Below, one piece after another: positions 1 to 38,185 of a stretch of DNA of 64,000 nt. The notes under the pieces were generated by a model. That model saw nothing but the letters and a program-made list of their open reading frames with translations. It did not search any database and had not been told where the DNA came from. Numbering within the stretch: the stretch's first letter is position 1; each line of letters begins with the position of its first letter. The position numbers and the translations under genes were made by a program. The DNA is from Heterodontus francisci (Eukaryota): contig NC_090377.1 in assembly GCF_036365525.1 (NCBI RefSeq), positions 90,325,126-90,389,125 on the forward strand, in the 5' to 3' direction.

Positions 1-262
1 GCTGTCTTACAATTCCCCCTCAAGTGTCTATGTGAAATTATTTTTTCACTAGGACACTTCCAGCCCTCTGCCACAATTTTAACAGTATTTTTGCTTTCCT
101 TTTTGATTTCATTGTACCAGGTCAGTCAGTTAAAATACTACAATAACCAATGGATGACGACTATTCTTAACATATACTGGTGTAATTGTTCTTCTAACTC
201 ATCTTCTCCAGCGATATCGACTTGCTTATGTAAATTAGCAGTATTCTAACTGATCCTAACAG

Positions 263-603
263 GATGACACAGTGGTGAAGTGGTTAGCAAAGCAGCCTTA
301 CAGCTCCAGTGACCCGGGTTCGGTTCTGGGTACTGCCTGTGTGGAGTTTGCATGTTTTCCCTGTGACCGCGCGGATTTCCGCTGGGTGCTCTGGTTTCCT
401 CCCACAGCCAAAGACTTGCCGGTTGATAGGTAAATTGGCCATTGTAAATTGCCCCTAGTGTAAGTAGGTGGTAGGAGAATTGAGGGAAGGTGGGGATGTG
501 GTCGGGAATATGGGATTAATTAGGATTAGTATAAATGGATGGTTGATGGTTGGCACAGACTTGGTGGGCTGAAGGACCTGTTTCAGTGCTGTATTTCTCT
601 ATG
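263..603 (+). mobile_element. tRNA-derived SINE (HE1/V-SINE-like)
   Basis: A box (AGTGGTTAGC), B-box-like GGGTTCGGTTC, V-domain-like core and CR1-type tail; homologous to the copies at 2556 and 42200. Confidence 0.85.
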
Positions 604-724
604 ACTTATTAATTTCCTAATTAAGCACTTATCATAATCAGTAGCTGGTGAATATACTGGAGGACCCCCTCCCCCCCACGCATACACACACTCTAAATAC
701 TCCAACAAGGGCCACTAATTCTAA

Positions 725-1499
725 GGCCAAGATTTTTCTTGGTGGTGAGCTTCAAAAGAGGCGTGGCACACATGCAGACGTGCACCGTGGAGCCGACGCG
801 ATATGTCGCGTGGCGACTCATTTACATTGAGAGGGTGGACCACCTGCCCCCGATGACATAGAGGGGGAAGGCAATCCATCCGCAGCGATGGTGTCCGGTG
901 CCACTGCGCAGGCAATGCCATTTTTAAAGGGCTTCAGGCCCTTCCATTTCATTTTACTGTTTAAAGTCGCAGATTGATAAAAAAAGATTAAAATAAAAAG
1001 TTGGTCACACTTCCAGTCCCCTCTCCCACCCCCCAATGAATAATCAGTTTACTACTTGTTCTGTCCCACCCAAAAAAGTAAATTTTCGATCACGACCTTT
1101 CCCCCCGAACTTTCTTTAACCTTCAACCCCTTCCCCTCCCCCGCCCTGAAAAATTAATTCGTCCCCCTTCCCCACCAGTGTTCCGCATCGGATCTCCGAA
1201 TGGAGAATTGAAGCCGCGGGACTTCCGGCAACCGGCCAGAATATTGGCGTGCAGCGGCCATCGCGACGAGGTAAGTAATTATTCATTTACTAGCATTGAT
1301 TTAAATATGTATATTATTTTTTTTGCCAAGCAGCGGTGGGGCCTCCTTGAGGCCTCACCACTGTTGGTAAAATTGGGTGGGGACTTCCTGGTGCCAAGGC
1401 TCGTGGCAGGCCTCCCCCGGAGGTATTTTCCACCCCCCCCCCCTTCCCCGCCACAACCCCCAACATCGGGGGGGGGGGGGGTCTGGTAAAATTCAGCCC
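725..1499. mobile_element. Non-autonomous PIF/Harbinger-type MITE
   Basis: Imperfect TIRs GGCCAAGATTTT...AAAATTCAGCCC, TAA TSD on both sides, CpG-rich; inverted homolog at 50291-51136. Confidence 0.75.
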
Positions 1500-2555
1500 T
1501 AAGATATTACCATGTAAATGCATAAGTTTCAAGCAACAGCTAAATCTTGATTTAAAGGATTCTCCATCTCTCTCTTCACCTCTATCTATATTGTGGATAA
1601 ATCGTACTAAGTATTATTTCTCCCTCGCCTTTTACTTTAACTTTAGTCCTTCTGACCATTACCAGTGTGTTTAATTCTATCCTGATCTTTTTAAAGTAAG
1701 TTTCTCAATGGAGTATGTGTCAATGCCTTGGTGATTTTTTAAAAAGTTGTCTCAGTCTACTGGCCACATTAACCATTTCATGTCATGCTGTTTGTCAAGT
1801 AACTGAACATGTCTGAGACTTGTTCTTTGGTGCAGGTTCACCATGCAATTCCGCACATTAGTTGCTTCACATGAAGCAAATCACATCTACACACTCACAC
1901 AGGTATTCCAATACAATGCCACACATGCCATCTGATACAAGCCATTTTTGGGCTTTCAGGTGATCTCCTTAAAAGATCAAGGAGGGTGTCTGTCTAAAGA
2001 TCTTTGCTTGTCTCCCCCTGCATGGCCCCGATGTCTCAGGTAGTGGCCGAACTATCATCAAATGCAGTTATCTTAAAAAGTTCATAGGCATAGATACAAA
2101 CATCTCCAAGAGAAAGCTATCAATTTATTTATCTCATCTACACCTTCCTCTCACTAGAATGTACATTAATACCAGATTTATATACCCATTGAATTGCACT
2201 CTGGTGATATTTCCAATTCCCATTTGTTGGTGTTTTTTTCCCCTTTATCTCCTATCCTTGATCACTTCTTCTCATTCAATTTTACACATCCCATTAGTTT
2301 ACCATTCTATTTCATTCATGAGCGCTGGAGGAACTTTACTGCCCAATACAATATTCTCATAATATCCTTAAAACAGAAGTCAGACTTTCCCACTTGATTC
2401 CAGGAATTGATGCATTTTGTTTGCCTGCTCTTTATTTAGATAACCTTTTATTTTTCAAAAATAGCGGTGTTGTTGGGCTGACAGGGTTTGTCGATGTTCA
2501 ATTCATTTCTCCCCAAAATAAGCTTTATTTTGATACTCAGGAACTAAATACTTCA

Positions 2556-2850
2556 GGCGGCACAGTGGCGCAGTGGTTAGCACTGCAGCCTCACAGCTCC
2601 AGGGACCTGGGTTTGATTCTGGGTACTGCGGAGTTTGCGAGTTCTCCCTGTGTCTGTGTGGGTTTTCGCCGGGTGCTCCGGTTTCCTCCCACAGCCAAAG
2701 ACTTACAGGTGATAGGTAAATTGGCCATTATAAATTGCCCCTAGTGTAGGTGAAATTATTGTAGGGTTAGTATAAATGGGTGGTTGTTGATCGGCACAGA
2801 CTCGGTGGGCCGAAGGGCCTGTTTCAGTGCTGTATCTCTAAATAAATAAA
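2556..2850 (+). mobile_element. tRNA-derived SINE (HE1/V-SINE-like)
   Basis: GGCACAGTGGCGCAGTGGTTAGC head and (TAAA)n tail. Confidence 0.87.
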
Positions 2851-3654
2851 CTGCTTTTCCTTAGTTTTTTAAATGAAAATTTGATTATCCACTAAACTTC
2901 ATGTAAATTTCCCTTTGAGTTTTTTTTTATTCATTCATGGGATGTCGGCATCGCTGGCTATGCCAGCATTAATTGCCCATCCCTAATTGCCCTTGAAGTG
3001 CTTGAAATAGCAACTCATAGCAATTTATTTTATCAATTCCAATCTCAAAAACAATGATGCCCAGTTTGGCAGTTTTACATGATATTTTTACGTCAGAGAA
3101 AACAATGCTTGTAATCATTTTAAACATGGCTCCCATATCTCTCCTTCTGGAGCACTTTGCCTCAGAAGATAACGAATGACCTGAAGGGGTTAAGGTCAAG
3201 TCTTTAAAAGGCAAAGCCTTCAGTTCAAATTGTCACCATGGTGTGACACTTGATGTCTGCAAATAACTTCTTAAATTCTGAAAACAGCTATATCTCATAC
3301 TGCAGTAACCATGTGGGCCTGGAAAACATCGTCACCTGTTTAAAAAAAGAGTAAAGAATCGATTGTGACTCTGCCCAAGAGCCCAAGAGGTTAATTTGTC
3401 CAATCATATTCACCAATTTAGAAACTTAAAATTTAATAATGGCCAATATATAAATTTACACTCAGCTACACCAAAGTTATGCGGTGAATTAAATGAAAAA
3501 ATAACTGTCAGCAGAAAGGGTTAACTTTGCTGCTTGTTTGCAAGGATGTGGAGTAAAACATTAACAGATGCACATAATTGCATCACTTTAAGTAACATTT
3601 TTTTCCCGATCAAGGACGAATAAAACACCATTTTAAACATCTTTCCCACATCTT

Positions 3655-4483
3655 GGTACCTTTAAAAACTTGCACAAGTTTTTTTTTAAACCTTCAACAT
3701 TTTTACACCAAAAGTGTTAGAGGGCAGAGTTTCCCATAGCTTGTGAGCTCTGAAACATTCACACCAGCTTCTTAAAGAGACAACATGATAACCTTTCAGT
3801 TGTTTAACAGTAGAACTGGTGACAGAATCTTTCCCATATCTCCTTCATTTATCTTTTTTCTCCCTTAAACCAGTTGTCAATTTCTAATGTTTGTTACTTA
3901 ACCACTTTGAGAAAACAGTCAGTAAGACTTGTTTTTTATTTGATATCTGCAAAAAAGCAATAACAGTTTTGAAAAATCAATTCTAGTACAATGAAACGAA
4001 AGTGTTTTGAAAAGTTCAAATTCAATTTCTGCCTGATGTTTTAGCAAACATAACTTCAAGGCCAAGGCTTATCTTTTATAAAAACAAACTCTTCAGTGGC
4101 TTGCACAGTTGAAAAACCACATTTTCAACCAGTTACAAATAACAAACATATGATTCCAACATTGAAGGAAAGACTAAAAAGGGTTAACAACTTTTAGCTC
4201 GACAGAGAAGGGTGTACTCTGCTGGCAAACACATATTTTATTTAAAAGACAGATTTTCATTTGCAGGTTAGAAAGTTTCCTCATACTCACACACACTCTC
4301 AGAAACTGAAGACAAAATCCTGTTGCCTTTCTCTTAAAAACAGAACATGTCACAGCAGTTTTTAGCTTTTGTTGTGGGCCTTTTTCATTTTTTTCAGGTG
4401 ATGGTTCAGATTGGGGTCAGTTATGACCAGGCAGAAAATGTGGAAGGTTTAAAACAAAACTTGTGCAAGTTTTTAAAGGTACC
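3655..4483. repeat. ~49-bp inverted repeat pair (3655-3703 / 4435-4483) flanking ~730 bp of AT-rich DNA
   Basis: GGTACCTTTAAAAACTTGCACAAGTTTT(T/G)TTTTAAACCTTC(A/C)ACATTTT and its reverse complement, with 2 mismatches. Confidence 0.85.
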
Positions 4484-4514
4484 CCTTTCTGAATCTCTAT
4501 CTGACTCTTCTTCA

Positions 4515-6300
4515 GTGGGATGAGTGACCACATAAGTCACGGCAGCTAGCTCCATCTGCTAGGTACTCAGTAGTGGGAAAGGATATTGCTAATTCAACCT
4601 CCCTCTGCGGATCGTAAATCCCATAGCCTGTTTTCTTTTCTCCTTCTTCCACAAAACTAAAGCCATTTATATAGATATTTATATAAATATCTTGCCCCTC
4701 AGGGTAGATTCCTACCCTGAATTCCACCTCAGTTTCCCAAACGCCCATTCACTGTGCAAGTGTGGGGTTCTCTCAGATTGTTAATATTGGTGCGAGCTTA
4801 GGGTCATCCATTCTGTTTAACTTCATGGTTTTTCCATTTAATGATAAAGTCCGTCTGGTTATTCTGGCACTAGAAACTGTTCCCTCTTTGATTCATCCGT
4901 CTAACGAAAGAGAATTGGAGTGTGGTTGGTAAGTAGTGTGAGAAGCTGGGTGCCAGTGAAGACTGTAAAATGCACGTTTAGTGTAAACTGTAAAATTCCG
5001 TTTTTTGAAAGCTTCTTTGCCTTTGTCAACCCAGTTCCACTTTACCCCTTTCTTTAATAGTCTCAGCAGGGGAGCCACGGTTGTGGCATGCCCTCGATAA
5101 ATTCCCGATAGTATCCAGTCAGTCCTAAGAGGCTGTCAGTGAATCTGGGCAGGGTAATTCCTGTAATGTACACTCCAGGTTGAATAGTCAGTCCCAAGAA
5201 CTGGACCTGCTTCTGTCCTATCAATGGCTTTTTAGGATAACCTTAAAACTAGCTGCCTGGAGCAACTCCAGTAGCTCTACTAACAGTTCTCTATATTCCT
5301 CATCACTCTCAGAAGACAACAACGTGTCCTCTACATAGTGTATCAGTTGATCTTGGTGACTGAACTCCCACAGACATGTTGCCATACTCCGCTAAAAAAT
5401 TGAGGGGCTGTTATGGAACCCTGGGGAAGACACATCCAGGTATATTGTTGTCCCCCAGGTGTAGGGGAATTGACCAAACGCCATTTGAGATGTCTAAGGC
5501 AGTGAATACGGTAGCAGATTTTGGAATATCATTAATCAAGTCCATCCCTGCTGTTGGGGCACAAGCTGAAATGTTCCTATTGAGTACCCGAAAATTAATG
5601 ATCATTCGCCCAGAACTGTCAAGTTTCTTAACTGGCCAAATAGAGGAATTTACATGGGTTGCTAAGGGCCTCAATACTCCCTGTTCCACTAGGGAGGCTA
5701 CAGCCTTTTCCAGGATTTTCTCTGCTTCCTTAGGGAAAGTGTATTGTTTGGTGTCTCCCTCTAGCCTGACTTCTACACCAGTCACTTGTCCACAATCATA
5801 TTTGTGAATGGCAAAATCTTCCCTATTTTCTTCTACTACAGTCCTGGTTGTGGTGTCCTGGTTGTCAGAGTTTTTAAATTATAGGGCCCTATAATGCCTT
5901 GCCATGGTGTAGAAGAATAACTATCACCTTGTCCACTTTATCTATTTTGCCCCACAACAATTATTATGCATGCCTACCACGATGTTGTGAGCCAACATCC
6001 AATCTGACCCTAAAACTCCCATTCCAGGATGGTCTCATCTCACTAAAACACATGTTCACTTTGTTTGGAGGGGGTCCCACCATAAAACTTAAGTGTATGG
6101 ATAGCCCCAGCCACTGTATCACCTGTAAATCTTCTCAATACAAAGGATTCTCCCATAGACCATGGAGAATTCATAGGAGAGGGCGGATCTGCTACCCTGC
6201 TTGACACTCCAGTGTTTACTAAATAATTACAATCCTTTCCCTCCACTATAATATCTACAAATGCTCTATCATAATCATTGTAACTGAGTGAACACAGGTA
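4515..6300 (-). pseudogene. Frameshifted retroviral-type pro-pol (protease, RT, connection, RNase H truncated; no integrase seen)
   Basis: ORFs 6043..6246, 5411..5785, 4893..5078 and 4512..4748 carry PR, RT, connection and RNase H motifs in that order. Confidence 0.85.
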
Positions 6301-7419
6301 CTTGGGCGGGGTGTGGCCCCTTCATGCTGAATTTCCTGGGACACCCTTTTCCTGGGCGACATGGACCTGACCCTGTGGAGTGATTCCATGGAGACACCAT
6401 TTCATAAATCTTTGGAAGTCCTGGAAACTAGGGACGCTTGGCTTGGGTGTCTCTTGAGTCTGAGTCCCCTGACCTGGGCCCTTCTTTGGTTTTCTACACT
6501 TTTGGGCAAAGTGTCCACTTTCCCACAATTGAAGTAGGTAGGGATGATCTGCTTTTCCCCATGGGCCACCTCCATGGGCCCCATCATCAGTGGCTGGAGT
6601 ATACCTCCTCTGTACAAGGGGAGCTATAGGTTTTGGTGGATCAGGGGCTTCTGGCAGGAGTCACCAGTTGCCAGACTGGGTTCTAACTCAATATCCTGCT
6701 CCTCATACTTAGTAGCACTCACCTCTCCAAATAACCCTGGGGACACGGTACATACTATACCAAGATTGACCTGCACTTGGCTCTCTAACTCTCCAATCTG
6801 TATCTTACATTCAGCATGGTCCAAGTGCTCCCCTTCATGTAGCTGCTTGTTTCTGTACCAACATGATGGCAGCTTTTAAATCCTCATTTTCTCTCTTAGT
6901 AGTTTCTACCTCTTGTGTCTGACTGTATGCTTCCTCCCTTCAGACTTCTTTGTGCTTGTCTTTACATTGGCTCGCTAGGTACTGTTCTCTATTACAACAA
7001 CTTTCCCGTTCTCTGTCATATTTTTCTTTCTTCTTGTAATTCTTGTAGTAATCTATTAACCACTGCTTCCCTATCACTTGCATTAGTTTTTAACTGCTTG
7101 TTCTCTTTTCTTAGCTTAAACTTCTCAGCTTCATCGTTTTTGAACTGGCATTGATATGCCATGAGACATATGGTTTTCATCGCTACAGAACAACAGGTCA
7201 ATCCTGTATCCAGTTGTCTGCTTCACAGACTGGTCTCTCAGTATTAATGATATTTTGGACCCACCCATTCTTCAGCAGGGGTAATTTCCCTGAAGCGTAT
7301 GTACTAACCAATTAATTCATAGATTTTCCCTTAAAAAGACTTGATTGCACTATTATTCTTTACTCATGTCCCTTCACATCTTTGCCAATTAATCTGAAGA
7401 ACATTTTAGAGAGTGATGG

Positions 7420-8897
7420 AATCATAGAGTAATACTAGCACAGAAGGAGGCTGTTCAGCCCATTGAGTCCATGCTGGCTTTCTGTAGAGCAATGCAATCA
7501 GTCCCATTCCCCAGCTCTATCCCCATAGTCCTGTAAATTTGTTTTTCTCAAATACCTATCCAGTTTTCTTTTGAAATCATTCATCGTAGGCAGCAAGTTC
7601 CAGGTCATTACCACTCGCTGCATAAAAAAGCTCTTCCTCACATCCACCCCCACATCGTTTGCCCAAAACCTTAAATCTGTGTCCCATAGTCCTTGTACCA
7701 TCAGCTTTTCTTTGGCTACTCTATCTAAACTTGTCAGAATCTTGTACACCTCCATCAAATCTCCCCTTAATTTTGTTTACTCCAAGCAGAACAATCCCAA
7801 GTTCTCCAACCTAACCTTGTAGCTAAAATCCTTCATTCCTGGAACCATTTTGGTAAATCTCCTCTGCACCCTCTCAAGGACCCTCTCATACTTCCTGAAG
7901 TGTGGTGCCTAGAACTGGATACAATACTCTAGTTGTGGCCTAACAAGAATTTTATAAAGGTTCAGCATAACCTCCCTGCTTTTATACTCAATATCTCTAT
8001 TTGTGAAGCCCAGGATGCCATATTCTTTGCTAATTACTCTCTCCATATATCCTGCCACCTTTAAAGACCTATGCAAATGTAGCCCCAGGTCCCTCTGTCC
8101 CTATACATTCTTTAGAAGGTACCATTTAGTCTATATTGCCTCTCTCTATCCCTTTTGCCAAAATGCATCACCACACATTTCCCTGTATTAAATTCCATCT
8201 GCTGCTTGTCTGCCCATTCTGCTAGCCTATCTATGTCCTGTTGCAATTGATTGGTATCATCCTCACTGTTAGTCACATCTCCAAGTTGGTATCATCAGCA
8301 AATTTTGAAATTTTACGCTGTTTTCCAATATCCAAGTTATTTACATATATCAAAAAAGCAGTGGTCCCAGCACTGAACCTTGTCTACCATCCTCCAGTCT
8401 AAAAAACAATCATTTACCACAACTCACTGTTTTCTGTCCTTCAGCCATTTTTAAAATCAAGTCTGACGCTGACCCTCCTATTCCATGGGCTTCAATTTTG
8501 GTAACCAGCCTTTTATGTGGTACTTTGTCAAAGGCTTTCTTAAAATCCATATAGACAACATCCATTGCTTTCCTATCATCAACCTTCTTTGTTACATCAT
8601 CAAAAATCAATGAGATTAGTTAAGCACAATCTGCCTTTTACAAATATCTCCCTAATTAACACAAACCTCTCCAAGTGCCTGTTGATTTTTTTCCCATATT
8701 ATTGTTTATAATACCTCATCCACCACAGATGTTAAACTGACCGGCCTGTAGTTACTAGGAATGTCCTTATACCTTTCTTGAATAATGGTGTCACATTTGC
8801 CACTCTTCAATCCTTGTATCTAGGAAAGATTGGAAGGTAATGGCAAGCCCTTCTGCTATTTCCACTTCCACTTCCTTTAGCAACCTGGAATGCCAGC
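7420..8897 (-). mobile_element. CR1 LINE, decayed ORF2/RT 3' portion
   Basis: DVVYMDFKKAFDKVPHKRL (8410..8610) and CR1 C-terminal FFMQRVV motif. Confidence 0.9.
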
Positions 8898-9394
8898 CTG
8901 ACTTATTCTGATTCAGACAGGAGAATTTTAGGAAATAATGGAGTGCATTCAAACTTCTATATTTATTATTAAACTTTATTAGGTTCACTCAAAATGTATC
9001 AAAACATGCAATGTGAACCTATACTCTACGACATATTACTTAGCATTAACAATAAATTGATCAAAATGTGAAGCAAGGAAAATAACTATAATCACCTGGA
9101 GTGGTCAATCTTCTGGTGGATTTTACCTGCACGTGTATTGATGAGGGTGATTCAGGGCAGAAGTGTGTGCGTGCATATTGGATGCCATTTTGATCCCTGA
9201 GCGGCACAGTAGGACCAAAACAATGGATGCTACCGGGCCCAAAATCATGCCTGGAATATTTTAACTAAGCCAGTAGCTTCTATGGAGTGCTAATTGGTAA
9301 TTATCTATAAACAAAATAAAGTTTCTGTGGCTTGAAATGCAGGCTGTTAAAGCTGTAAATTAGATATGCCCTGGCAGAGTACATTAATGCATAG

Positions 9395-11428: not shown

Positions 11429-11833
11429 AAATGCATGAAGGATGTTTCCCTTGGCTGGGGAATCTAGAACCAAGGGATACAGTCTCAGAATAAGGGGCAG
11501 ACTATTTAGGACTGAGATGAGGAAGAATTTCTTCACTCAGAAGGTGGTGAATTTTTTGAATTCTCTGCTCCAGAGAGCTGTGGAGGCTCAGTCGTTCAGT
11601 ATGTTCAAGACTGAGATTGATAGATTTCTACATATTTAAAACATTAAGGGAAATGGGGATAGTGCAGGAAAATGGTGGTGAAGTAGAAGATCAGCCAAGA
11701 TTTCATTGAATAGGGCAGCGGGCTCAAAGACCTACTCCTGCTCCTATTTCTTATGTTTTTATGTTCTTATGACTAACTTTTATAAAATACTAGTTTAGCC
11801 TCAACTGAAATATCGTGTCCAATTCTGGGCACC

Positions 11834-12683
11834 TGAAGAATTTTTAGTCTACTTCTTCTGGTTCAGTCATGAGAATTATAGGAAGTAGTGGAGTGTACTC
11901 AAACTTCTGGATTCACTACTCAACCTTATTAGATTCACACAAAATATATCAAAACATGCAATAAGTTTCATTCAAAACATAGCAAAACATGCAATTAGGT
12001 TCATTGAAAATATATCAAAACATGTAATACAAGCCTACACTCTACTATGAACTTACTTAGCACTAACAATAAATTGATTGAAATTTGAAGCAAGCAAAAT
12101 ACCTAACGTAACATGGAGTGGTCAGTTTCATGTTGATTGCAGTTCTCTAGTGATTGACACCACAGTTGCAATATTGAAGTTTCTTTAACGGTATCTTTTA
12201 TCCCCTAATTTTAGGGAGGGACAAGATAGTATCCTGACAGCGGCTTTAGTCCAATTAGTGTTTGTTTTAGGCCAATATACCCTATCACATGCTGATCCTT
12301 TTGTTTAAAAAAGCCTGCCCTGGTAGTGTCAATCTTCTTTAAACTTCCTTCAGTCAGTTTCCATCAGTTGGGGGTGCTTGGGGGCAGTTCCTCAACATCT
12401 GGTAGTTTTCCATATGTGCAACAGTTGGGGGTCATGGGATCGATTACAAGTCCCATCCATCTAGCTATAAGGTATTTGTTTCTTTCTGATAATGCTGTGT
12501 GGTTTCTTGCTCTTTTGTCACAGTTCATCAAATTTGATCTTAAAAGGCCAAAAGAAGAGCAAAAAAATGCTTTCTGCAATGTCCACCGTCCGACTCCAAG
12601 CATAATGGTATTTTTATGGTCAGCGTCAGCATGAGGTTAATTTTTGAAAAGCCAATTTTTAATAAAGACGATGCTGTCTTACA
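11834..12683 (-). mobile_element. Solo LTR of the same family as the provirus at 1-9110
   Basis: TGAAGA...TCTTACA termini; 4-bp TSD CACC splitting the CR1 sequence CTGGGCACC|ACACTTTAGG; homologous to 8900-9110 and to positions 1-11. Confidence 0.85.
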
Positions 12684-13361
12684 CACCACACTTTAGGAAG
12701 GATGTGAAGGCTTTAGAGAGGATGCAAAAAGATTTACTAGAATTGTTCCAGGGCTGAGGGACTTCAGTCACATGACAGACTGGAGAAGTTGGGTTGTTCT
12801 CCTTAGAGAAGAAGAGGTTAAGTGGAGATTTAATAGAAATGTTCAAACTTGTGAAAGGTCTGGCTGAGTAGATAGAGAGAATCTGTTCCCATTGATAGAA
12901 AGGTCAAAAACCAGAGGGCACAAATTTAAGGTGACTGGCAAAAGAACCAAAGAAGACATGAGGGAAACTTTTTACGCAGCGAGTGGTTACAATCTGGAAT
13001 GTACTGCCTGAAAGTGTGCTGGAGGCATATTCAATCATGGCTTTCAAATGGGAATTGGATAAGTACCTGAAGGGAAAAAAATTGCAGGACTACAGGGAAA
13101 TGGTGGGGGAGTGGGACTAGCTAAATTGCTCTTGCAGAGAACCAGCAAAGGCTCAACAGGCCAAATGGCCTCCTTCAGTGTTGTAACCATTCTATGATTA
13201 TAAATACTTCTGCTATAAAATGAAAATATTTTATACATATATTAGGTAATATATATGTATAACTTCTGCTGTTATTTTAACCTTAATTGTTTACCTTATC
13301 TCCAACTCATTGGACTGTGTGTAATTAAGCATCCTTGAACACTTGTCCTTTTGATTTTTAG

Positions 13362-16210: not shown

Positions 16211-16464
16211 TAATAAAAACAAGAAATGCTGGAACCACTCAGCAGGTCTGGCAGCATCTGTGAAAAGAGAAGCAGAGTTAACGTTTCGGGTCAGTGACCC
16301 TTCTTCGGAACCCGAAGACGGGTCAGTGACCCTTCTTCGGAACCCGAAGACTGACCCGGAATGTTAACTCTGCTTCTCTTTTCACAGATGCTGCCAGACC
16401 TGCTGAGTGGTTCCAGCATTTCTTGTTTTTATTTCAGATTTCCAGCATCTGCAGTATTTTGCTT
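16211..16464. mobile_element. Fold-back (inverted) Penelope pseudo-LTR pair
   Basis: ~70-bp perfect inverted arms (16213-16282 / 16363-16432) around a duplicated ~32-bp ribozyme segment. Confidence 0.85.
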
Positions 16465-19988: not shown

Positions 19989-22900
19989 TGCTACGACCGA
20001 GGCAGGAGGAGTGCATTGTTTTTTCTAGTTCCACTTCTCCATAGGTCATTTAAATTTTTTCCGACTTACCGATACAGCCAGTCATAGACTTTTTTTATCC
20101 AAGAATAAAACATACCAACCAGGTTTCTTCAATAAACAACAACATTTTCAGTTTATTATAAAACAAGTCTTAACCAGTAATGCCGTAAAGCATAAACACA
20201 CAGATAGAAATATTAAAGTTCCTTCTTTTACCTTAGTTCCTCACACACACACATACATACACACATATACCGGTTAACTGGTGAAAAAGGTAATTTTGCT
20301 TTAGAGCTCTGTTATAAAAAAAAGACAAAAAAAACCCACTTAGACTGAATAGTTGCTCATTCTCGAAGAAAAAAGAGCAGATATGGAAAGATGTCCTTTG
20401 TTTTGGTTTGGCACCCCAAATGCATATAGATGGCTGTCACTGGGATCTTCCTAGAACAGTTCTTTCCAGGCAATGTTGAAGATCAGTTTGGGTAGGCTTT
20501 CCCAGAAATACAGCAACTGAGATTTCAGATAGACCTTACAGCAGAAATTTGGCAACAAGGGTTCAGTTCCCACACATTTGATACGCAGAGTTTCTTCAAA
20601 TACAGGAGGAAAGAGGAGACTAACACACTGGACATGCAGGGTTTCTTTCAAAGGGAGAGAAAGAGATAAGCTGGGTTTTCTTGGCAGGCAAAAACCAACT
20701 GTCTTTTTTAACAGTTCAAAGTGAAACTAAAAACATTCCAGAAGTCAAGCCTCCTGACCTCTATAAATCTCAACCTGCCATTTCTCTGTAAACATCTTCT
20801 CTATGTAAAAACAACAAGCTCCCTGCTGGTATATTATCTGGAAACAGGTGCCTTCAAGTAAGGGCTTGATAACAAGCCAAGTCCAGGAATCCTTCTGGTG
20901 ACCTCTGTTAAAAAACACGAAGTTCAGCATCTCTTCAAGCTTCGAGATGAATCAATGTCCTCAATTCAACCTTAAATCTTTAGAAATATATTTTACAAAA
21001 TAAAGAAGCACTTTCATTACACCTCCACCCGTGGAGAAATAAAACACCATTTTTAAATGTGTTTCATTACAAAGTGGAAAAAAACAAAAGATGGGAACAT
21101 TTTAAAACACATTTTCACACCCATCCCCATTCACCCTTTACCTGTAGTTAATACAATTCTGCTCTGTACCCTCTTTGCATTCAGATAACTCAAAACAAAG
21201 TTAGATTCTCGATAAAGCATCTGCAATAACATTATTTTTGTCCACAGTGTGGATAATCTTTACGTGATAAGGTTGCAATAGTAAACTCCATCAGAATAAT
21301 CAGGCATTTTGGTTTTTGAATTTTTCCACAAAATTTATCACTAAATCAGTCAACTGCAACCTTCCAACCGGAGCCTCCCAGTTGTTCCAAGTGGTCCTTC
21401 CAAGTGTCACTATAGACCAGCACATCATCAAGGTAAACCACACAGTTAGGAACACTGGCTACCATTTGGTTCACTAGTCTCTGAAAAGTGGCTGGGGCAT
21501 CCCCCAGCCTGAATGGCATCACATGGCACTGGAAAAGACTGTCTGGTGTTACAAAAGCTGATATTTATTTAGCCTGGGGTGTTAAAGGAACTTGCCCGTA
21601 TCCCCTGAATCTATTTTTGTAAGAAACATGGCACTGCCCACTCTGTCAATACAGTCTTCCAAGCGAGGAATTGGGTAGGAGTCTGTCTTTGTTACTGTAT
21701 TAACTTTTCTGTAGTCTATGCAAAGTCTAGTTGAACCATCAGGTTTAGGCACTAATACCACTGGCGAACTCCACTTGCTTTGACTGGGTTCAATTAGGTG
21801 GTTTCCGACATATATTGGACTTCTGCTTTTACCTGGCCTATTTCTCTGGACTTAAGCAGTAAGGATGTTGTTTTATAGGAAAGGATTCCCCTACATCAAC
21901 ATCATGTGTGGATAAGGTTGTACATACTGGCTGATCCCTACAGACTCTTTTAAATGCTGTGAGTAGCTTTGTTAGCTCTTCTAGTTGTTCTGCATCTAAA
22001 TATGAAAGCATAGTGTCCAATCTCCCTCACAATTCAGTATTAGCTAATCGGATAGGAGGAGGTTCAATTTGAGAATTGTCTAGGCCTCCTTCTGCCTCAG
22101 CCTCACTATCCTTTTCATCCTTCTCTATCCCTACTACTTGACACATCTTTGCTTGCTTATCCCACTCCCGGCAATAATATTGTTTCAACGTATTAATATG
22201 ACACAGTCGATTCTTTTTCCAGCGATCTGGGCGATGTCAATCAAATAATTTACTTTACCAATTCTCTTGACCACTTTATATGGACCACTGAACTATGTGT
22301 TCACTGGTTCACCCTAGAAAGGTTGAAATGTTCAGATCTTATCATGCTTGTCTGCCCATTTCTTCATAGTTGTTTGGAAAGCTTTAAGGTGTTCTTGTGC
22401 CACTTTGCAGGCTCTCGTGAGCCATTCCCGGAAAGCAGATACATAATGTTGCACAGAAGATTCGTTCTTCTGTTCTAAAAACATTCCTTTAATTAGTTTA
22501 GAGGACCTCCTATCTCATGTCCGTAAACTAATTCAAAAGGACTAAAACCAGTAGACTCATGAAGTGAATCCCTAGCGGCAAACAAAAGAAATTCTAGCCC
22601 TTTATTCCAAACATGGGGATATTCATGACAGTATGCCCTAATCATAGTTTTGAAGGTCTGATGGTAGCTTTCTAAAGCTCGCTGTGTCTGTGGGTGGTAT
22701 GCTGAAGACTTTAACTGTGTTATACCCAAATCAACCGTAACTTACTGAAATATTTTAGACATAAAATTGGAACCTTGATCCGACTGAATCTCAATCGGTA
22801 ATCCATATCTAGTGAAGAACTGGGTTAACTTCTCTACCACTACCTTAGCAGAAATTGTTCTGAAGGGAGTGGCTTCTGGGAACTGAATAGACATATCCAT

Positions 22901-25076
22901 GATAGTGAGTATATATTGATGTCTCACTTTTGTTTTTGGTAAAGATCCTACACAGTATACCAACACCCTACTAAATGGTTCCCCAGTATCTGGTACGGGA
23001 ATTAGAGGCGGCGGTTTTATGGCAGGTTGCGGTTTTCCCACAATCTGGCACGTATGCCATGTTTTACAAAACTGCACCACATCCTTGGAAAGACCTGGCC
23101 AGTAAAAATGTTGACTTATACATGATTTGGTCTTCTGGATCCCCACATGTCCCACTATCGGAATTTCATATGCTATCCTTAATAGTTCCCGGTGTTCCTC
23201 GGCAGTACCACTATCTGATGAACTATCGTCCATTCTTCATCTGAAGGTGTGTGAGGAGGTCTCCACTTCCTCATTAGAATCCCATTTTTAACATAATAGC
23301 CTTCTGGAACTCCTTTTGTCTCAGCTTCTGTTTGAGCTGATTGTGCCACTTTATTTAACTTTGGATCAGCTTGCTGAGCCGTGATCAGAGAAGACTTATT
23401 AAACATTTCCTTTAGATTATCCAAATCCCCAAAGAAAGGTTCAGATGTTCGGCTATCTGTCTGTGGTGCCATTTTTACCTCCAACAATGGAACATGTTTA
23501 GCCATGCTCGGGTTACTATACATGAAGGAAAAATTCCCTTTGTTTTGGTTAGGCATCCCAAATGCATATCGATGGCTGTCAATGGGATCTTCCTAGAACA
23601 GTTCTTTCCAGGCAATATTGAAGCTCAGTTTGCGTAGTGTCATGCAGACCCCCACCTACCAAGAATGAGGCACATTGATTTTGTCATAGGAACATTGATT
23701 TTGAACTGTGCTGGAGTGAGGAAATGACTTGTTGAACAGATCAGCTGTGGCTGGAATAAACGTTTGTATACTAACAGATGGTGCTTGTGTAGACAAAGGG
23801 CCATTCCCTGACACATTCAACCCACAATGGATGTTGATCACAGGACATAGAGGGGGTGGGGAAGCACATTCCAGGGCCTGCTGGGGTGATGCAATCCACA
23901 GGGGCCAGGACTGGTTGGACCAGCTGGTCACATGACTAACTGGCTGTTCCAGGGTTTTTTGAACTAGCCACAGAGAGTTTGAACTCAGTGTCCGTTTGCT
24001 CCTGGACTGAAAAGACCTTTCCTCGCTGGCTCGCCACAGCTCTCCTGTCTGCTCCCATCTCTTTCTCACAGAACTCCAAATCCACTGAAGATGCATGAAT
24101 CCCAAGAGAGTAAAGTCTCCTACCGTGAACAAGGTTTAAGAAGAATACTGGGCCCCATTGAAATGCAAGATCTATCTACAATCAAGGACTCTACAGTGAG
24201 CTCGAAGATCCGTAACAAAAACCCTCTTCAGAGATTGCCCCAAACTTTTACACTTTATTTCTTCTGCTCTGTTCTGTCCATATCTGCATGTGTGTATTGC
24301 TTATGCATACTAGCATGGGCACGTTGTGTATCCATAGGCATTAACCGAATTAGAGTTTAAGTTTAATAAATTTCAACCTTCTTTTTAAACCTAAGAAAAC
24401 CTTTTTGTGCTGGTTTCTTTGCCTTATAGTTGGAAAGCGCTGAACAAGGATTCACCAAGGGGGAGTTAAAAACACGGCATGCTTAAAATTAAACCCTGTT
24501 ACGGTAAGACCAGGTGAAGGCTGAGGTGAACCCCCAGACCCCTTTTTCACCTGGTCGTAACAGTAGGCTTTCCAAGAAATGCAGCTACAGAGGTCAAATA
24601 TGTATTACAGCAGGAATGCAGCAACAAGGTTTCAGTTCCACACATTCAACATGCAAAGTTCCTTTAAACACACAGGTTCTCTTCAAATACAGGAAACAGG
24701 AATCTGAAAAACTGGATGCAGGACTTGTTCTCAAAAGAGAGAGCTGAGCTGGCTGGGTCGTCTTCTATTGCAGGCAACCGACTAGCTTTTTAACAGTTCA
24801 AATTGAAACTAAAACATTTCAGAAAGCAAGCCTCCTGACAGCCATAAATCTTGGCTTGTCATTTCTTCATAAACATCTCTCCAAGTCAAAAACAACCCCT
24901 GCTGGTTTATTTGAAAACAGGTGCCTTCCAGTAACTGTTTACAGTTCAAACTCAGTCAAGCCTTCTGATGACCTCCGTTAAAAAAAAAACACCCAAAGTT
25001 CCAGCGTCTATAGAATCCTTTTCAGTTTTAAACACAAATTCTCAAAATTTAACAAAAAATGGAAACACTCGTAACA
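19989..25076 (-). mobile_element. Gmr1-type Gypsy LTR retrotransposon (IN upstream of RT); gag/PR deleted
   Basis: 3' LTR 19989-21021 (TG..CA) with PPT GGGTGGAGG; partial 5' LTR ~23520-25076; integrase HHCC, QSDQGSNF and SAYHPQT motifs (22493-23233) precede RT PIKQHPY and YLDDVLVYS (21400-22020). Confidence 0.88.
23638..24562 (+). mobile_element. Solo LTR inserted in the 5' LTR of the Gmr1-type element
   Basis: TGTCATG...CGTAACA termini, exact 4-bp TSD GTAG, AATAAA at ~24365. Confidence 0.88.
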
Positions 25077-33800: not shown

Positions 33801-35864
33801 CTGTCCTAGTGCTCCTGCACAATGTTACCCCAGTGGTTGCAGCATAGCTGGTGGAATGCTGCTGACTTTCAATGGGGTTGACTGCAGATGGCCTTGCACA
33901 ATGACCTTGAATGGCTATGGCCCTGGAAGGCCCAGCTTTGGATTGCACCACCTGAGCATGGACAGCAGCAGTCTGGGCTGACTGACTGACAGGCAACAGC
34001 AAGGGCACTGGCTGAGTGTCAGTTGTGGGAGGACAAATGCTCTCATCATGAAAGAGGCTCATCTTCCACAGTGCCACTGCCATTCCCACATCAACCTCAA
34101 CAATCCTAGCAATGTGTTTGAGGACAGATTGCTGGAATACTGTGAGACCCTGCAAGCCCCTTTGCACACAATGTCCTCAATCATAGTGGCAGCATCTGAG
34201 CTTCCACTACAGCAGCCAGACATTGAGTAGTTTCTGCTAGTGCTGCAAATGAACCTGAGACATCAGCCATCAGACACTGCATCGTGGTTGTGTTTTCATG
34301 GAGTTGGCCACCACTTCCATGCTGGAAAGAATGGGCTCTAAGCTCTGTGCAAAGCCCTGTGCCAAAGTTGTTGACAGCCTCCTTGATTCCCCTTGACACT
34401 GTCTACAGGCTTTCTGGCAGGCCTGCCAATGCACCAAACACTTTAGTGTGCATACCCATCAGCCTTTTTCTGTAGGCTGCCCATTCAAAGTCCTCATCTG
34501 AGTCCCCTGCAGCGGAGCTTGTGTTCAGCCTCACCTTCACTACGCTGCACTACCCTTGTCCCCTGCCCTGGCTACAGGCCATTCATGCCTAGTGCCTCAC
34601 CATGTGCAGATCCTGCCTCCAAGTTACCCTCTAAAGTACAGGCAATGTCAGTATCTGAGATGGTGGATGTGAGTTTGAGAGTGACTGACAGTATTTCTTC
34701 TTCATCTTCTTCATCACTGTTTTCCTGCTCTTCCACCTCCTCCTCCACCACTGCCTGGCCGGGTTGCAGTTCTTGGGGATCTGAAAGGAGAAAGCACAAG
34801 GGTACAGTTGTGGTCAGGGGAGTAGGGGGGAAGCAAGAGGTTTGTATTTACACTAATTGCAAATTGTAAATAAAGATTGTGAGATGAAGGGGAAGTTGGA
34901 TGTGACAAGGATTAGATATGAACATACCATCATCTTTGATGGTTTCAGTCCCCCTGCTGGTCAGGGCCTCAGTCATGGCCACTCCAATGATGGCAAGCAT
35001 TGTCTCCTCCATGGTTCTGAGGACCTGCAGGCATGCCTTTTCCCACCGATTAGCTCCTGCTGCCTTCGGCTATGCACCGCGATGCATTGCAAAAAAGAGG
35101 GAAGTGTGTTATTGAGTGTGGTATTTGGGTCATGTGGTTGTCATGGTTGAATAGCTGGCAGTGTATGCAATCTGTGAGATGTGGGTGTAAGGGTGAGATA
35201 AGGCATATGAATGTTATGTTTGAGTTGTTATTGATTGAGATTGTTGGTTGTTGAGTGATGGGGGTGTGTAGCATTGAGTAAAGTGTGAGATTTGCAGGGC
35301 AATTGGTAAGATGTCGCATTTGAAGTTGAATTTTCTAATCTTGACCACTCTTGTGAGGTCATTGAACTTCTGACAGCACTGCAACCTGGTCCTTGTCCCC
35401 TGCCCTGGACTTTGGCATTGACCACCACAGCCATCTGTTCCCATTAGTTTCTGAGAATTTGGAGCAGTGGTTGGCAACGTATCCGTACACCAGTGTCCAT
35501 GGTAAAAATTTTGAGGTCCGTGACTGGCAATTTCAGGAATGAGAAATTTCCCATTGACTTCTTCTTTCCAGACAAGTCTGACTTTAAAAAAATTCACAGC
35601 CATCAGATTCAGTTTCACGCTGACCAGTGCTGGGACGGGAACAGCGGCTTCCGAAATCAGGACAAGTTCTGTTTTTTCCGGCAGGTTCTGATTGTTTTTT
35701 AGAAAGCCTGCCAAAAACCCCGAACCTGTCCAGAGCTCGGAAGCCACTGTTCCCGCTCCCAGCACCTTTCACTGTGAAAATGAAACTGACAGCTGTGAAT
35801 TTTTTTTTAAAAACTGACCAATCACAAAGCTGGTCTTGAGAAAGTTCCTGCTCTGTGCAACTGT

Positions 35865-36912
35865 CAGAGAGAGAGGCAGAGGGAGAGACAGAGAGAGAGA
35901 GAGAGGGAGAGGGAAGAGGACGAGGGAACAGGGAGGGGGAGAGGGAGGAAGAGGGAGAGGGGAGAAGGACAGAGAGGCAGGGAGATGGGAGAACGAAGGA
36001 AGAGGGAGAGGGAGAGAAAGGGGAAAGAGAGAGGGAGAGGGAAGNNNNNNNNNNNNNNNNNNNNNNNNNNNNNNNNNNNNNNNNNNNNNNNNNNNNNNNN
36101 NNNNNNNNNNNNNNNNNNNNNNNNNNNNNNNNNNNNNNNNNNNNNNNNNNNNNNNNNNNNNNNNNNNNNNNNNNNNNNAGGGAGAGGGAGATTGGGATGG
36201 AGAGCGAGAGAGAGGGGGAAGAGAGTGGGGGAATACGGATGGACACAGAGGAAGGGGGGGCGAGAAAGTGAGGGAGAGAGATGGACACAGAGGGGGGAGA
36301 GAGAGAGGTGAGAGATGGATTCAGAGAGGGTATAGGGATTGACACAGAGAGGGGGCGAGTGAGCGAGAGGGGAGAGAAAGAGATCAAGATCACACCTGAC
36401 ACTTGGAGAGACAGAGAGGAGAGAGAGGGAGAGGAAAAAGTGAGGCAGAGAGAGAGGAAAGAGGGAGAGGGGAGAATGAGGGAGAGAGAGGGAGAGGGAG
36501 AGAGGGGTGGGAAGAGCGAGGGGGAGAGAGGAAGGGGAGAGAGAGTGCGGGAGAGGGGAGGGGAGAGATAGGAAAGAGAGAGAGGGAGAGGAGAGAGTGG
36601 GAGAGAGTGGGAGAGAGAGAGTGGGGGAGAGAGAGAGGGGTGAGAGAGTGAGGGATAGAGGAGAGGAGTGAGGGGGAGAGAAGGGGGATGGAGGAAAGAA
36701 AGTGGAGAGAGATGGGGGCAAGAGAGAGGAGGGAGAGAGAGGAAGGGAGATAGGGATGGACAGAGAGAGAGGGGAGAGAAAGGAGGAGAGAGTGGGGGGA
36801 GACAGATGGACAGAGGGAGGTGAGAAGGGGGAGAGAGAGAGAGGGGGAGAGATGGACAGTGAGAGGGTATAGGGATTGACACAGGGAGAGAGAGTGAGAG
36901 GGGACAGAAAGA
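35865..36912 (+). repeat. Polypurine GA-rich low-complexity tract
   Basis: Directly visible; accounts for the long low-complexity ORFs here. Confidence 0.95.
36045..36178. other. Assembly gap (134 N)
   Basis: Run of n. Confidence 0.99.
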
Positions 36913-38185
36913 GATCAAGATTACACCTGACTGATGGACATCTCTCTGGATTCTCCGCATCGCTACATCAAGTGTGTGGGCAGACATTGACTACTGGTGC
37001 AAGCAAAAACAATGCCAGGTACTCATTAAATAGGGAGAAATGCATTTTAAATCAGATTGTGATTTGAAGGCATTAGGTTGGCTAGACACTTTATATACAA
37101 ATTAATTGTCCCCATGTCCGTGGCTGAGTCAATAATTTTGTCAAATGTCTGTGGTGCAACATGTTGGTGCCTATCCCTGGTCTTGAGGCCCTTCTGATCC
37201 CCTATGGATAGACAACATCTCTTCTCCTCTGGCCCTCCTTGTCCAATGCCTCCAGTACAGTGTCAGAAAGTCTTGAAACCTACTTTCTGCCATGATGTGT
37301 TATCATTCAGTGTTCTCTTGCTCACACTCTCTTCCACAACCAGTTCCTGCACCTGCTGCAGCCAGAATGCACCTTCCCTTTCAGAAGTGCAGACTGCCTT
37401 TAAGTAGTGCAGGCTAGCTTTGAGTGGTGCTAGTCTGTCATGATTTTGCATACTCTGGTCAGGCGTGCAGCCTCTCAACAACGCATTTAGCACTGCCTGC
37501 ATGTTGCAATCACTTAAATGAGCAGGCAGCACAAAGTGCACCCGTTTTAGGCCTTAGCGAATTTCGCGGCCATATTTTATTCATCGGCATGAAGATTATT
37601 TGCTCTGTAATGTAGGAAATCTTGTTTATTCAGTAGGATAAGGATTATTCCGTGTATAACTAGATGGAATTGCTCTTTATGCTGACATTTTACAAATAAC
37701 TGAGGTTTTGCAGAATGTAAATAATATAAAATGTACAGGTTCAGTTAAGTATAATGGGTAAACTGTGATCGTTTCCAAAATCTAACTAGTTTTGTAAATG
37801 TTGAGGTTACTAATTGTGTTCCTCAAACTGCCCGTGGTATCTCTGTAATTGTGAATCACAGCTCTCTTTTTCTTGCATCTCTACTATTACCATGCTGTTC
37901 AGTATAGTATGGATGATTGCCTTATGCTATTGCAAATTTCATTACTTTTACTCCAATTTTTATAAGGGAAGACATTATGAAGTATAATTAGGAAAATTAT
38001 AGGGCAAAATTTTTGACACTGTCACATTACTGCAGCAAATCTGTCAGCCTGAACATTTGCTAAACAGCCTGAGCATTTTTTCTAACATTGGGGGGGTGAC
38101 CTGCCATGCAAACAGGGAAACCCTGCTTTACTACTCTTGCTTTAAGAAGATCTTCAAAGAAGATTCAGAAAGTGGTGCAGACCTA

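Follow-up and report, generated by a model that had tools for sequence, protein, structure and literature searches.

A dead, probably chimeric provirus of a class III-like endogenous retrovirus and its non-coding partner family in the shark Heterodontus francisci

Related retroviruses and the shark element

Endogenous retroviruses (ERVs) of class III, together with the snakehead retrovirus SnRV, constitute the clade Huo, which extends across all vertebrates (Xu 2018, PMC6001957; PMC8922424). Most ERV reverse transcriptases (RTs) of cartilaginous fish fall in clade III (PMC11089739), and in the elephant shark CmiERV lineage I clusters with SnRV (Han 2015, PMC4422223). The lokiretroviruses (loki) are known from lampreys, ray- and lobe-finned fish, amphibians and reptiles, none being reported from Chondrichthyes in the accessible part of their description, and have an envelope gene (env) related to PF00523, the F protein of Mononegavirales (PMC7947760). 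The subject of the present analysis is a retroviral element in a 64-kb stretch of the 6.0-Gb genome of Heterodontus francisci (NC_090377.1, 90,325,126-90,389,125; G000:C7), hereafter the window, in which an earlier note made from the letters alone had seen a single provirus at 1-9110 with an RT of foamy or loki type. The reading that, taken as a whole, is judged probable from the sequence is that of a provirus now dead, a chimera that arose once. In this reading the 5′ half is a gag-pro-RT-RNase H segment that has lost its capsid and comes from a canonical retrovirus, neither loki nor Gypsy, of class III or snakehead-like grade. The 3′ half would be the non-coding body of a partner family, non-autonomous and with the same long terminal repeat (LTR), and a template switch in the course of reverse transcription would have linked the two. 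In other words, the element is likely of a known kind, a class III-like shark ERV, what is new being the likely F-type env of its relatives and a partner family of the kind represented by ETn in the mouse.

Among described systems, CmiERV lineage I resembles the shark family in its cartilaginous-fish host and in its layout of a tether followed by RNase H (PMC4422223), and also in the motifs DISNGFWSIPL and LPQGFHNSP and a coiled-coil-like gag, which were read by eye from the DNA in the supplement. It differs in another primer site and in a gamma-type env (PMC4422223), whose immunosuppressive domain (ISD) and CX6CC motif were likewise read by eye from the DNA. In the shark family the primer site is of Arg type, neither ISD nor CX6CC occurs in env (0 of 29 rows) and there is a non-autonomous partner. 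A chondrichthyan lineage of the same grade is already in print (PMC4422223). SnRV has the identical LDISNGFWSI, and its RT is 38% identical to the window row and 49% to that of the relative C30. Moreover, SnRV has an Arg primer site and a large Gag coiled coil. The DxxNG(F)W motif, which the earlier note had taken as a retroviral signature, is real but not diagnostic, because SnRV, loki and foamy viruses all have it, as does the lineage-I ERV published from the elephant shark. The layout of a tether with RNase H is likewise common to snakehead, foamy and loki viruses. Mouse ETn/MusD is like the shark pair in that a non-coding family has the LTRs of a coding family and receives its proteins in trans (PMC1331978); MusD is of class II, env-less and still active, whereas the shark pair is class III-like, env-bearing and ancient, its trans-mobilisation being inferred only, from copy number and common cis-signals.

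The junction, the partner family and the origin of the chimera

All features of the element lie on the minus strand. Its RNase H sequence matches copies C9 and L222 down to 4511-4512 and there passes, over two to four common bases, into partner sequence, such that the junction from RNase H to non-autonomous sequence lies at 4484-4511 with 2-4 nt of microhomology. Counts from genome searches, here and below, rest on scored candidates and are given as n scored of m candidates. None of the 39 other matches to the junction query (40 scored of 60) spans 4511; four lie on the pol side, 34 on the partner side and one is a local inverted copy. The single provirus of the earlier note is confirmed in part, 12-4511 coming from a different, non-autonomous type of element.

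The internal non-coding stretch of this second type occupies 612-4435 of the window (612-725 and 1499-4435). Its parts 3000-4435 and 1500-2545 recur widely in the genome (40 scored of 2858 and 40 scored of 1620 candidates), and in 18 of the 19 loci drawn from these matches for structural comparison the stretch is colinear. In L201, L202 and L208 an LTR, primer site and leader are followed by the internal stretch within ~100-190 bp, while L201, L202, L204 and L205 finish with the same 3′ segment and LTR. RT or RNase H precedes the stretch in none of the 19 loci; behind it lies an integrase tail in five and an env tail in three, remnants which show that the partner family descends from the coding family. 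The partner is a non-autonomous family in which unrelated non-coding sequence stands in place of most of gag-pol, and which has its LTR, leader, primer-binding site and polypurine tract (PPT) in common with the coding family. The interior, roughly 3.5 kb in L201-L220, has a GC content of 37%. Fifteen frames from three copies gave no Pfam match that would indicate a captured host gene, two loci gave no convincing Rfam match (one at E=0.056, far below its threshold), and the stretch has no period-3 signal, gap lengths that are multiples of three (52 of 231) not being favoured.

The coding family is represented by 150 matches to the RT piece (150 scored of 4556 candidates) and the LTR by 78 matches (40 scored of 211). 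Copy C9, which has the same LTR, matches the window at 74-76% from the protease to 4511 and again across PPT and LTR, and carries integrase and env between these two window-like segments. The full layout, LTR, primer site, gag, pol, env, PPT and LTR, is present in C9 and in other relatives, and RT, tether, second RNase H and integrase follow one another in the natural pol P0007 and in the relative C30. Both of the latter have the Pfam domains RT_RNaseH and RNase_H (RNase_H at 628-770 of P0007), and the window aligns to both domains. The window copy itself is without capsid, integrase and nearly all of env, and its gag remnant, protease, RT, tether and RNase H pieces are all interrupted by stops or frameshifts when read on the minus strand. 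No functional protein can come from it today. The coding family appears to have primed on tRNA-Arg and to have made 4-bp target duplications. C30 (L032 609-9726) belongs to a related, younger family, in which gag and pol form a single long frame and the members of the LTR pair are 5% apart. At 182.7-185.9 Mb of G000:C3 there are more than 20 similar RT matches, spaced ~90-200 kb and in one orientation, which suggests that a provirus is contained in a large tandem segmental array. The frog and coelacanth proteins P0001-P0004 and P0126, annotated 'NYNRIN-like', are whole pol proteins of the same retroviral grade.

In the preferred reading of the origin, the partner is likely mobilised in trans by the coding family, whose proteins would package and copy partner RNA as MusD does ETn. 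A helper likely packaged a coding RNA without capsid together with a partner RNA, and RT then likely changed templates at the 2-4 nt of microhomology, to give one insertion. After integration, long ago, LINE and SINE (long and short interspersed nuclear element) insertions would have followed and both outer LTR ends would have been lost. The two halves lie in the same orientation. Two points weigh against this reading. The LTR remnants of the window do not overlap, such that no LTR pair or target duplication that would mark a single integration is readable; and a younger DNA-level rearrangement, at 4435-4483, lies ~30 bp from the junction, which shows that genomic repair acted near it. The same two parents could instead have been joined in the chromosome, if a non-autonomous element inserted within a coding provirus or next to it, both having one orientation, and a microhomology-mediated deletion later took the partner's 5′ LTR and the provirus's 3′ half. 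The uniqueness of the junction among the 40 scored matches, its microhomology, the unpaired LTR remnants and the younger events nearby (a ~550-600 bp deletion and a templated copy in inverted orientation) are all consistent with such a history, as is the local density of family LTRs, with a solo LTR 2.7 kb away. It requires, however, two independent same-orientation insertions plus a deletion, and the 26 kb to the left of the window contain no displaced integrase and no second LTR or further part of one. A chromosomal joining is regarded as unlikely, and a template switch as the probable origin.

In regard to age, two LTR pairs of partner copies differ by 0.156 (L201, 256 sites) and 0.214 (L205, 784 sites), a third pair (0.053, 39 sites only) having been set aside. 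With assumed rates of 0.5e-9 (PMC10699275) or 2.2e-10 (PMC4422223), these differences would correspond to about 155-215 or 355-485 million years, the rates being unsure. The LTR pair of C30 differs by 0.052, making it younger than the partner copies.

Following the element from its 5′ end, the rest of the 5′ LTR (R/U5 side) lies at 8899-9122 and is 79-83% identical to the solo LTR, its U3 side being lost. A LINE RT fragment (RVT_1, E=3e-6), presumably of the CR1/L2 subtype, sits inside this LTR at ~7409-8898, and the U5 end, which ends in CA, is at 7395-7408, where L208 matches across 7409-7203. The LTR sequence noticed earlier at ~8900-9110 is thus of the LTR family, but the 5′ LTR ends at 7395 and not at 8900. 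A decayed primer-binding site for the host tRNA-Arg(TCG) is found at 7368-7387; the match is 17 of 18 in L061, and the score of the window is equalled by 0.7% of 3000 random 45-mers. Here (7388-7394) and in family copies four to seven bases separate the LTR end from the primer site. The spacing is usually two bases in many retroviruses. The gag remnant, at 6320-7300, keeps its coiled-coil-like N-terminal part and a frameshifted CCHC near 6530-6490, both as earlier described, while the capsid region has been deleted at ~6570. This deletion amounts to ~630-635 bp, a gap of 23 bp in the window comparing with 658 in C1a and one of 200 with 826 in C1b, and in C1b the missing region matches the capsid-like part of C30. 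The protease remnant (5900-6320; tblastn with residues 2-51 of P0007 at 6252-6103) has no Pfam match of its own, and its catalytic Asp is now Asn. The RT, at 5040-5750, has frameshifts, stops and small deletions, and TALDISNGVWSIPL and TWMCLPQG can be read in it on the minus strand. The tether, a degenerate RNase H, lies at 4835-5035 and has lost ~185 bp near 4985. The frameshifted N-terminal half of the retroviral RNase H is at 4511-4700 (tblastn with P0007), and the RNase H motifs IYINGFSF..GYGIY and QMELAAV are present in two frames, in agreement with the earlier note.

Within the 3′ half, later insertions at 726-1498 and 2545-2846 and the ~550-600 bp deletion at 3690 interrupt the internal stretch. 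The insert at 726-1498 is a separate repeat, 64% identical to a stretch in L215. A 49-bp inverted copy of 3655-3703 (96%) at 4435-4483, the source of which spans the join of the 3690 deletion, is found in the window copy only; both it and the deletion are private to this copy and younger. A DNA transposon (miniature inverted-repeat transposable element) at 3655-4483 was considered and rejected, as the stretch is internal to the family and other copies lack the second arm. A later short-repeat insertion of the repeat family D17, on the plus strand at 254-611, is absent from family copies and is taken here to be SINE-like. The 3′ untranslated stretch at 22-253 (73-81% to family copies) includes an env-tail remnant at ~170-253 that overlaps the env tblastn matches in L211 and L220; alone, 22-253 gives no significant env-profile match. 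The PPT, at 12-21 and identical in L201, L202 and L204, directly adjoins the start (TG at 11) of the 3′ LTR, as had been proposed. The first part of U3 occupies 1-11 and continues ~400 bp to the left of the window with one insert before being lost; this LTR is 85% like the solo LTR. The terminal pieces 1-11 and 8899-9122 are of one LTR family and cover different parts of the LTR. From family copies, the LTR pieces of the window are 0.13-0.30 distant.

The solo LTR, at 11834-12683 on the minus strand, is a separate insertion of the same family with TG..CA ends and a 4-bp target duplication, CACC on the plus strand at 11830-11833 and 12684-12687. Its own target duplication rules it out as the 5′ LTR of the element. 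Elsewhere in the window a decayed Gypsy element lies at 21200-23410 on the minus strand, with its integrase before the RT, an order we take to be Gmr1-like, and with ~50% identity to SCAN-bearing Gypsy proteins. The integrase at 22.5-23.2 kb belongs to this element and was rejected as a displaced part of the provirus. An 84-nt inverted repeat, 98% complementary and 54 nt apart, is formed at 16212-16433 by two copies of a common repeat, and a GA-rich low-complexity tract runs from 35850 to 36920, with 134 N at 36045-36178.

Placement of the reverse transcriptase

RT trees were built from 124 rows, from 66 of those (LG+G4) and from 32 rows for the approximately unbiased (AU) tests and a mixture model. 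Broken RTs were read with X at the breaks, the window row covering 222 of 273 columns; P0011 was taken as SnRV because it is identical to the row of that virus in the supplement to PMC7947760, and the label loki was given to six rows that have the motifs of published loki rows, P0280 grouping with them. The window RT groups with the shark copies and P0007 (100/100), and these then join C30 and the frog and coelacanth elements (81/92; 89/96). The whole clade lies inside the canonical retroviruses (100/98 with 66 rows, 100/97 under the mixture model, 99 with 124 rows), whereas the loki rows form a separate clade, sister to the canonical retroviruses (100/100; 100/99). In this regard, the AU test rejects a grouping of the family with loki (p=0.021) or Gypsy (p=0.024) and of the wider clade with loki (p=0.044). 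Groupings with SnRV (p=0.36), or with SnRV and the ERV-L-like rows (p=0.39), are neither rejected nor recovered. Gamma and epsilon-like rows form clades of their own without the shark family, which is therefore outside class I. Identities of the window RT are 59% to P0007, 40-42% to the frog and coelacanth elements, 38% to SnRV, 28-33% to ERV-L-like and gamma rows, 28-31% to loki and 25-28% to Gypsy. Ty3/Gypsy membership is rejected by the AU test and by the dual RNase H, Gypsy having a single one. The earlier view of a deep-branching retrovirus outside ordinary Gypsy is upheld by the AU test and by the tether and second RNase H of the relatives.

Several points weigh against the preferred reading here. 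SnRV is in no tree the direct sister of the shark family, the branching at the base of the canonical retroviruses is without resolution, and the rows comprise no authentic foamy, labelled Odin, lentivirus or CmiERV sequence. Moreover, phmmer ranks foamy Pol chains first among the solved relatives of a related RT-RNase H (253 bits, as against 235 for MLV, murine leukaemia virus). A basal foamy-like retrovirus (clade Tu) would also make an F-like env unsurprising, foamy Env having been shown to be F-like (PMC11468914), and post-fusion foamy Env is the top Protein Data Bank (PDB) row in the Foldseek search described below, without significance (E=0.07). Nevertheless the RT motifs match those of SnRV and CmiERV lineage I, the QY(H/R)INP and VYVDD of foamy rows do not occur in the shark family, and C30 has a CCHC knuckle and gag-pol in one frame. 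These two latter characters are unlike foamy viruses. A foamy affinity is on this evidence very improbable.

In loki rows P-F-G-Y-x-N-S-P-A-E/D-F stands where the shark family has L-P-Q-G, and no match to a loki query against the genome exceeded 42% identity (52 scored of 44779 candidates), no loki element being found in that LPQG and QYVDD are present in each of the ten best loci. A lokiretrovirus or Odin-like element would be the first in cartilaginous fish and is the least credible reading of all, since, in spite of a tether with a new RNase H, a gag-start coiled coil that recalls the loki smc-like gene and the coiled-coil gene or region near gag of loki and Odin (PMC7947760, PMC9040795), and a likely F-type env in the relatives as in loki, its RT clade, motifs and identities differ and the grouping is rejected. 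The shark family has an env, which Odin, the sister of loki, lacks, and sits outside the loki side of the tree, and so does not belong to Odin either. The loki type of RT claimed earlier is thereby contradicted, while a loki-like character may yet hold at the level of the family in its F-type env.

The envelope of the coding relatives and its significance

The env stretch of C13 has 130 matches in the genome (126 scored of 5003 candidates), and a profile of env matches behind pol in 7 of 14 other loci, of which three (C11, C1b and C8) did not contribute to the profile, and nowhere in the window; one C30 match inside pol was discounted. The broken env of C30 is faintly like that of the main family (iE 3e-4). 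In L094 an RSKR furin site is followed by ~415 residues in the order long helix, Cys-rich beta region, second helix and membrane helix. An R-x-K/R-R motif is present in 11 of the 29 env rows, many of which do not cover the site, and the CX6CC and ISD motifs that a gamma-type env has in a short transmembrane subunit occur in none of them. Atlas ranks the Baculo_F (0.93) and Fusion_gly (0.90) clusters first, a ranking which counts as weak evidence because the recognition scores are low. Pfam gives Baculo_F at E=0.006 in 1 of 29 env rows and Fusion_gly at E=0.025 in 2 of 80 rows. In a Foldseek search with an env model of pLDDT (predicted local distance difference test) 51, a torovirus spike was matched at E=1.4e-5 with a TM (template modelling) score of 0.13, and foamy Env, human metapneumovirus (hMPV) F and respiratory syncytial virus (RSV) F were among the top PDB rows without reaching significance. 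These signals point the same way, though no single one is decisive, and the env of the coding family is predicted as likely to be an F-type (class Ib) fusogen of the paramyxovirus, baculovirus, foamy and loki type.

Other searches were silent. A second env model (pLDDT 40) had no BFVD match, VIA searches with both low-confidence models gave helical matches only, and PDB sequence profiles gave coiled-coil matches only. Genome searches with PF12259 and PF00523 found nothing, nor did the controls for them, and a search of longer database proteins gave no homolog of env. These null results do not speak against an F-type fold. What does weigh against it is that the signals are weak, the models reaching pLDDT 51 and 40, and that the window keeps the env tail only. 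The further proposition, that a canonical pol, neither foamy nor loki, is combined here with an F-like (class Ib) env while its elephant-shark pol relative has a gamma-type env, is put forward tentatively, as somewhat short of an even chance. In frogs, a class III ERV with a class I env is on record (PMC8278194). No F-type env was found for class III or shark ERVs in the accessible literature, subscription journals, Repbase and bioRxiv supplements lying outside the search.

With the shark family, the ETn-like kind of non-coding partner has an ancient example in class III. Wang and Han have argued that canonical and loki env genes had separate origins (PMC9040795), foamy Env having later been shown to be F-like (PMC11468914). 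If the assignment of the shark env is true, F-type fusogens span loki, foamy viruses and the class III grade, which would counter the view that loki and canonical env genes have nothing in common, and would favour either descent of retroviruses from an ancestor with an F-type env or repeated exchange of env. A third retroviral group of this env type, found in the oldest lineage of jawed vertebrates and with more than 100 env copies, would allow sequence and structure to be used to test which fusogen is ancestral.

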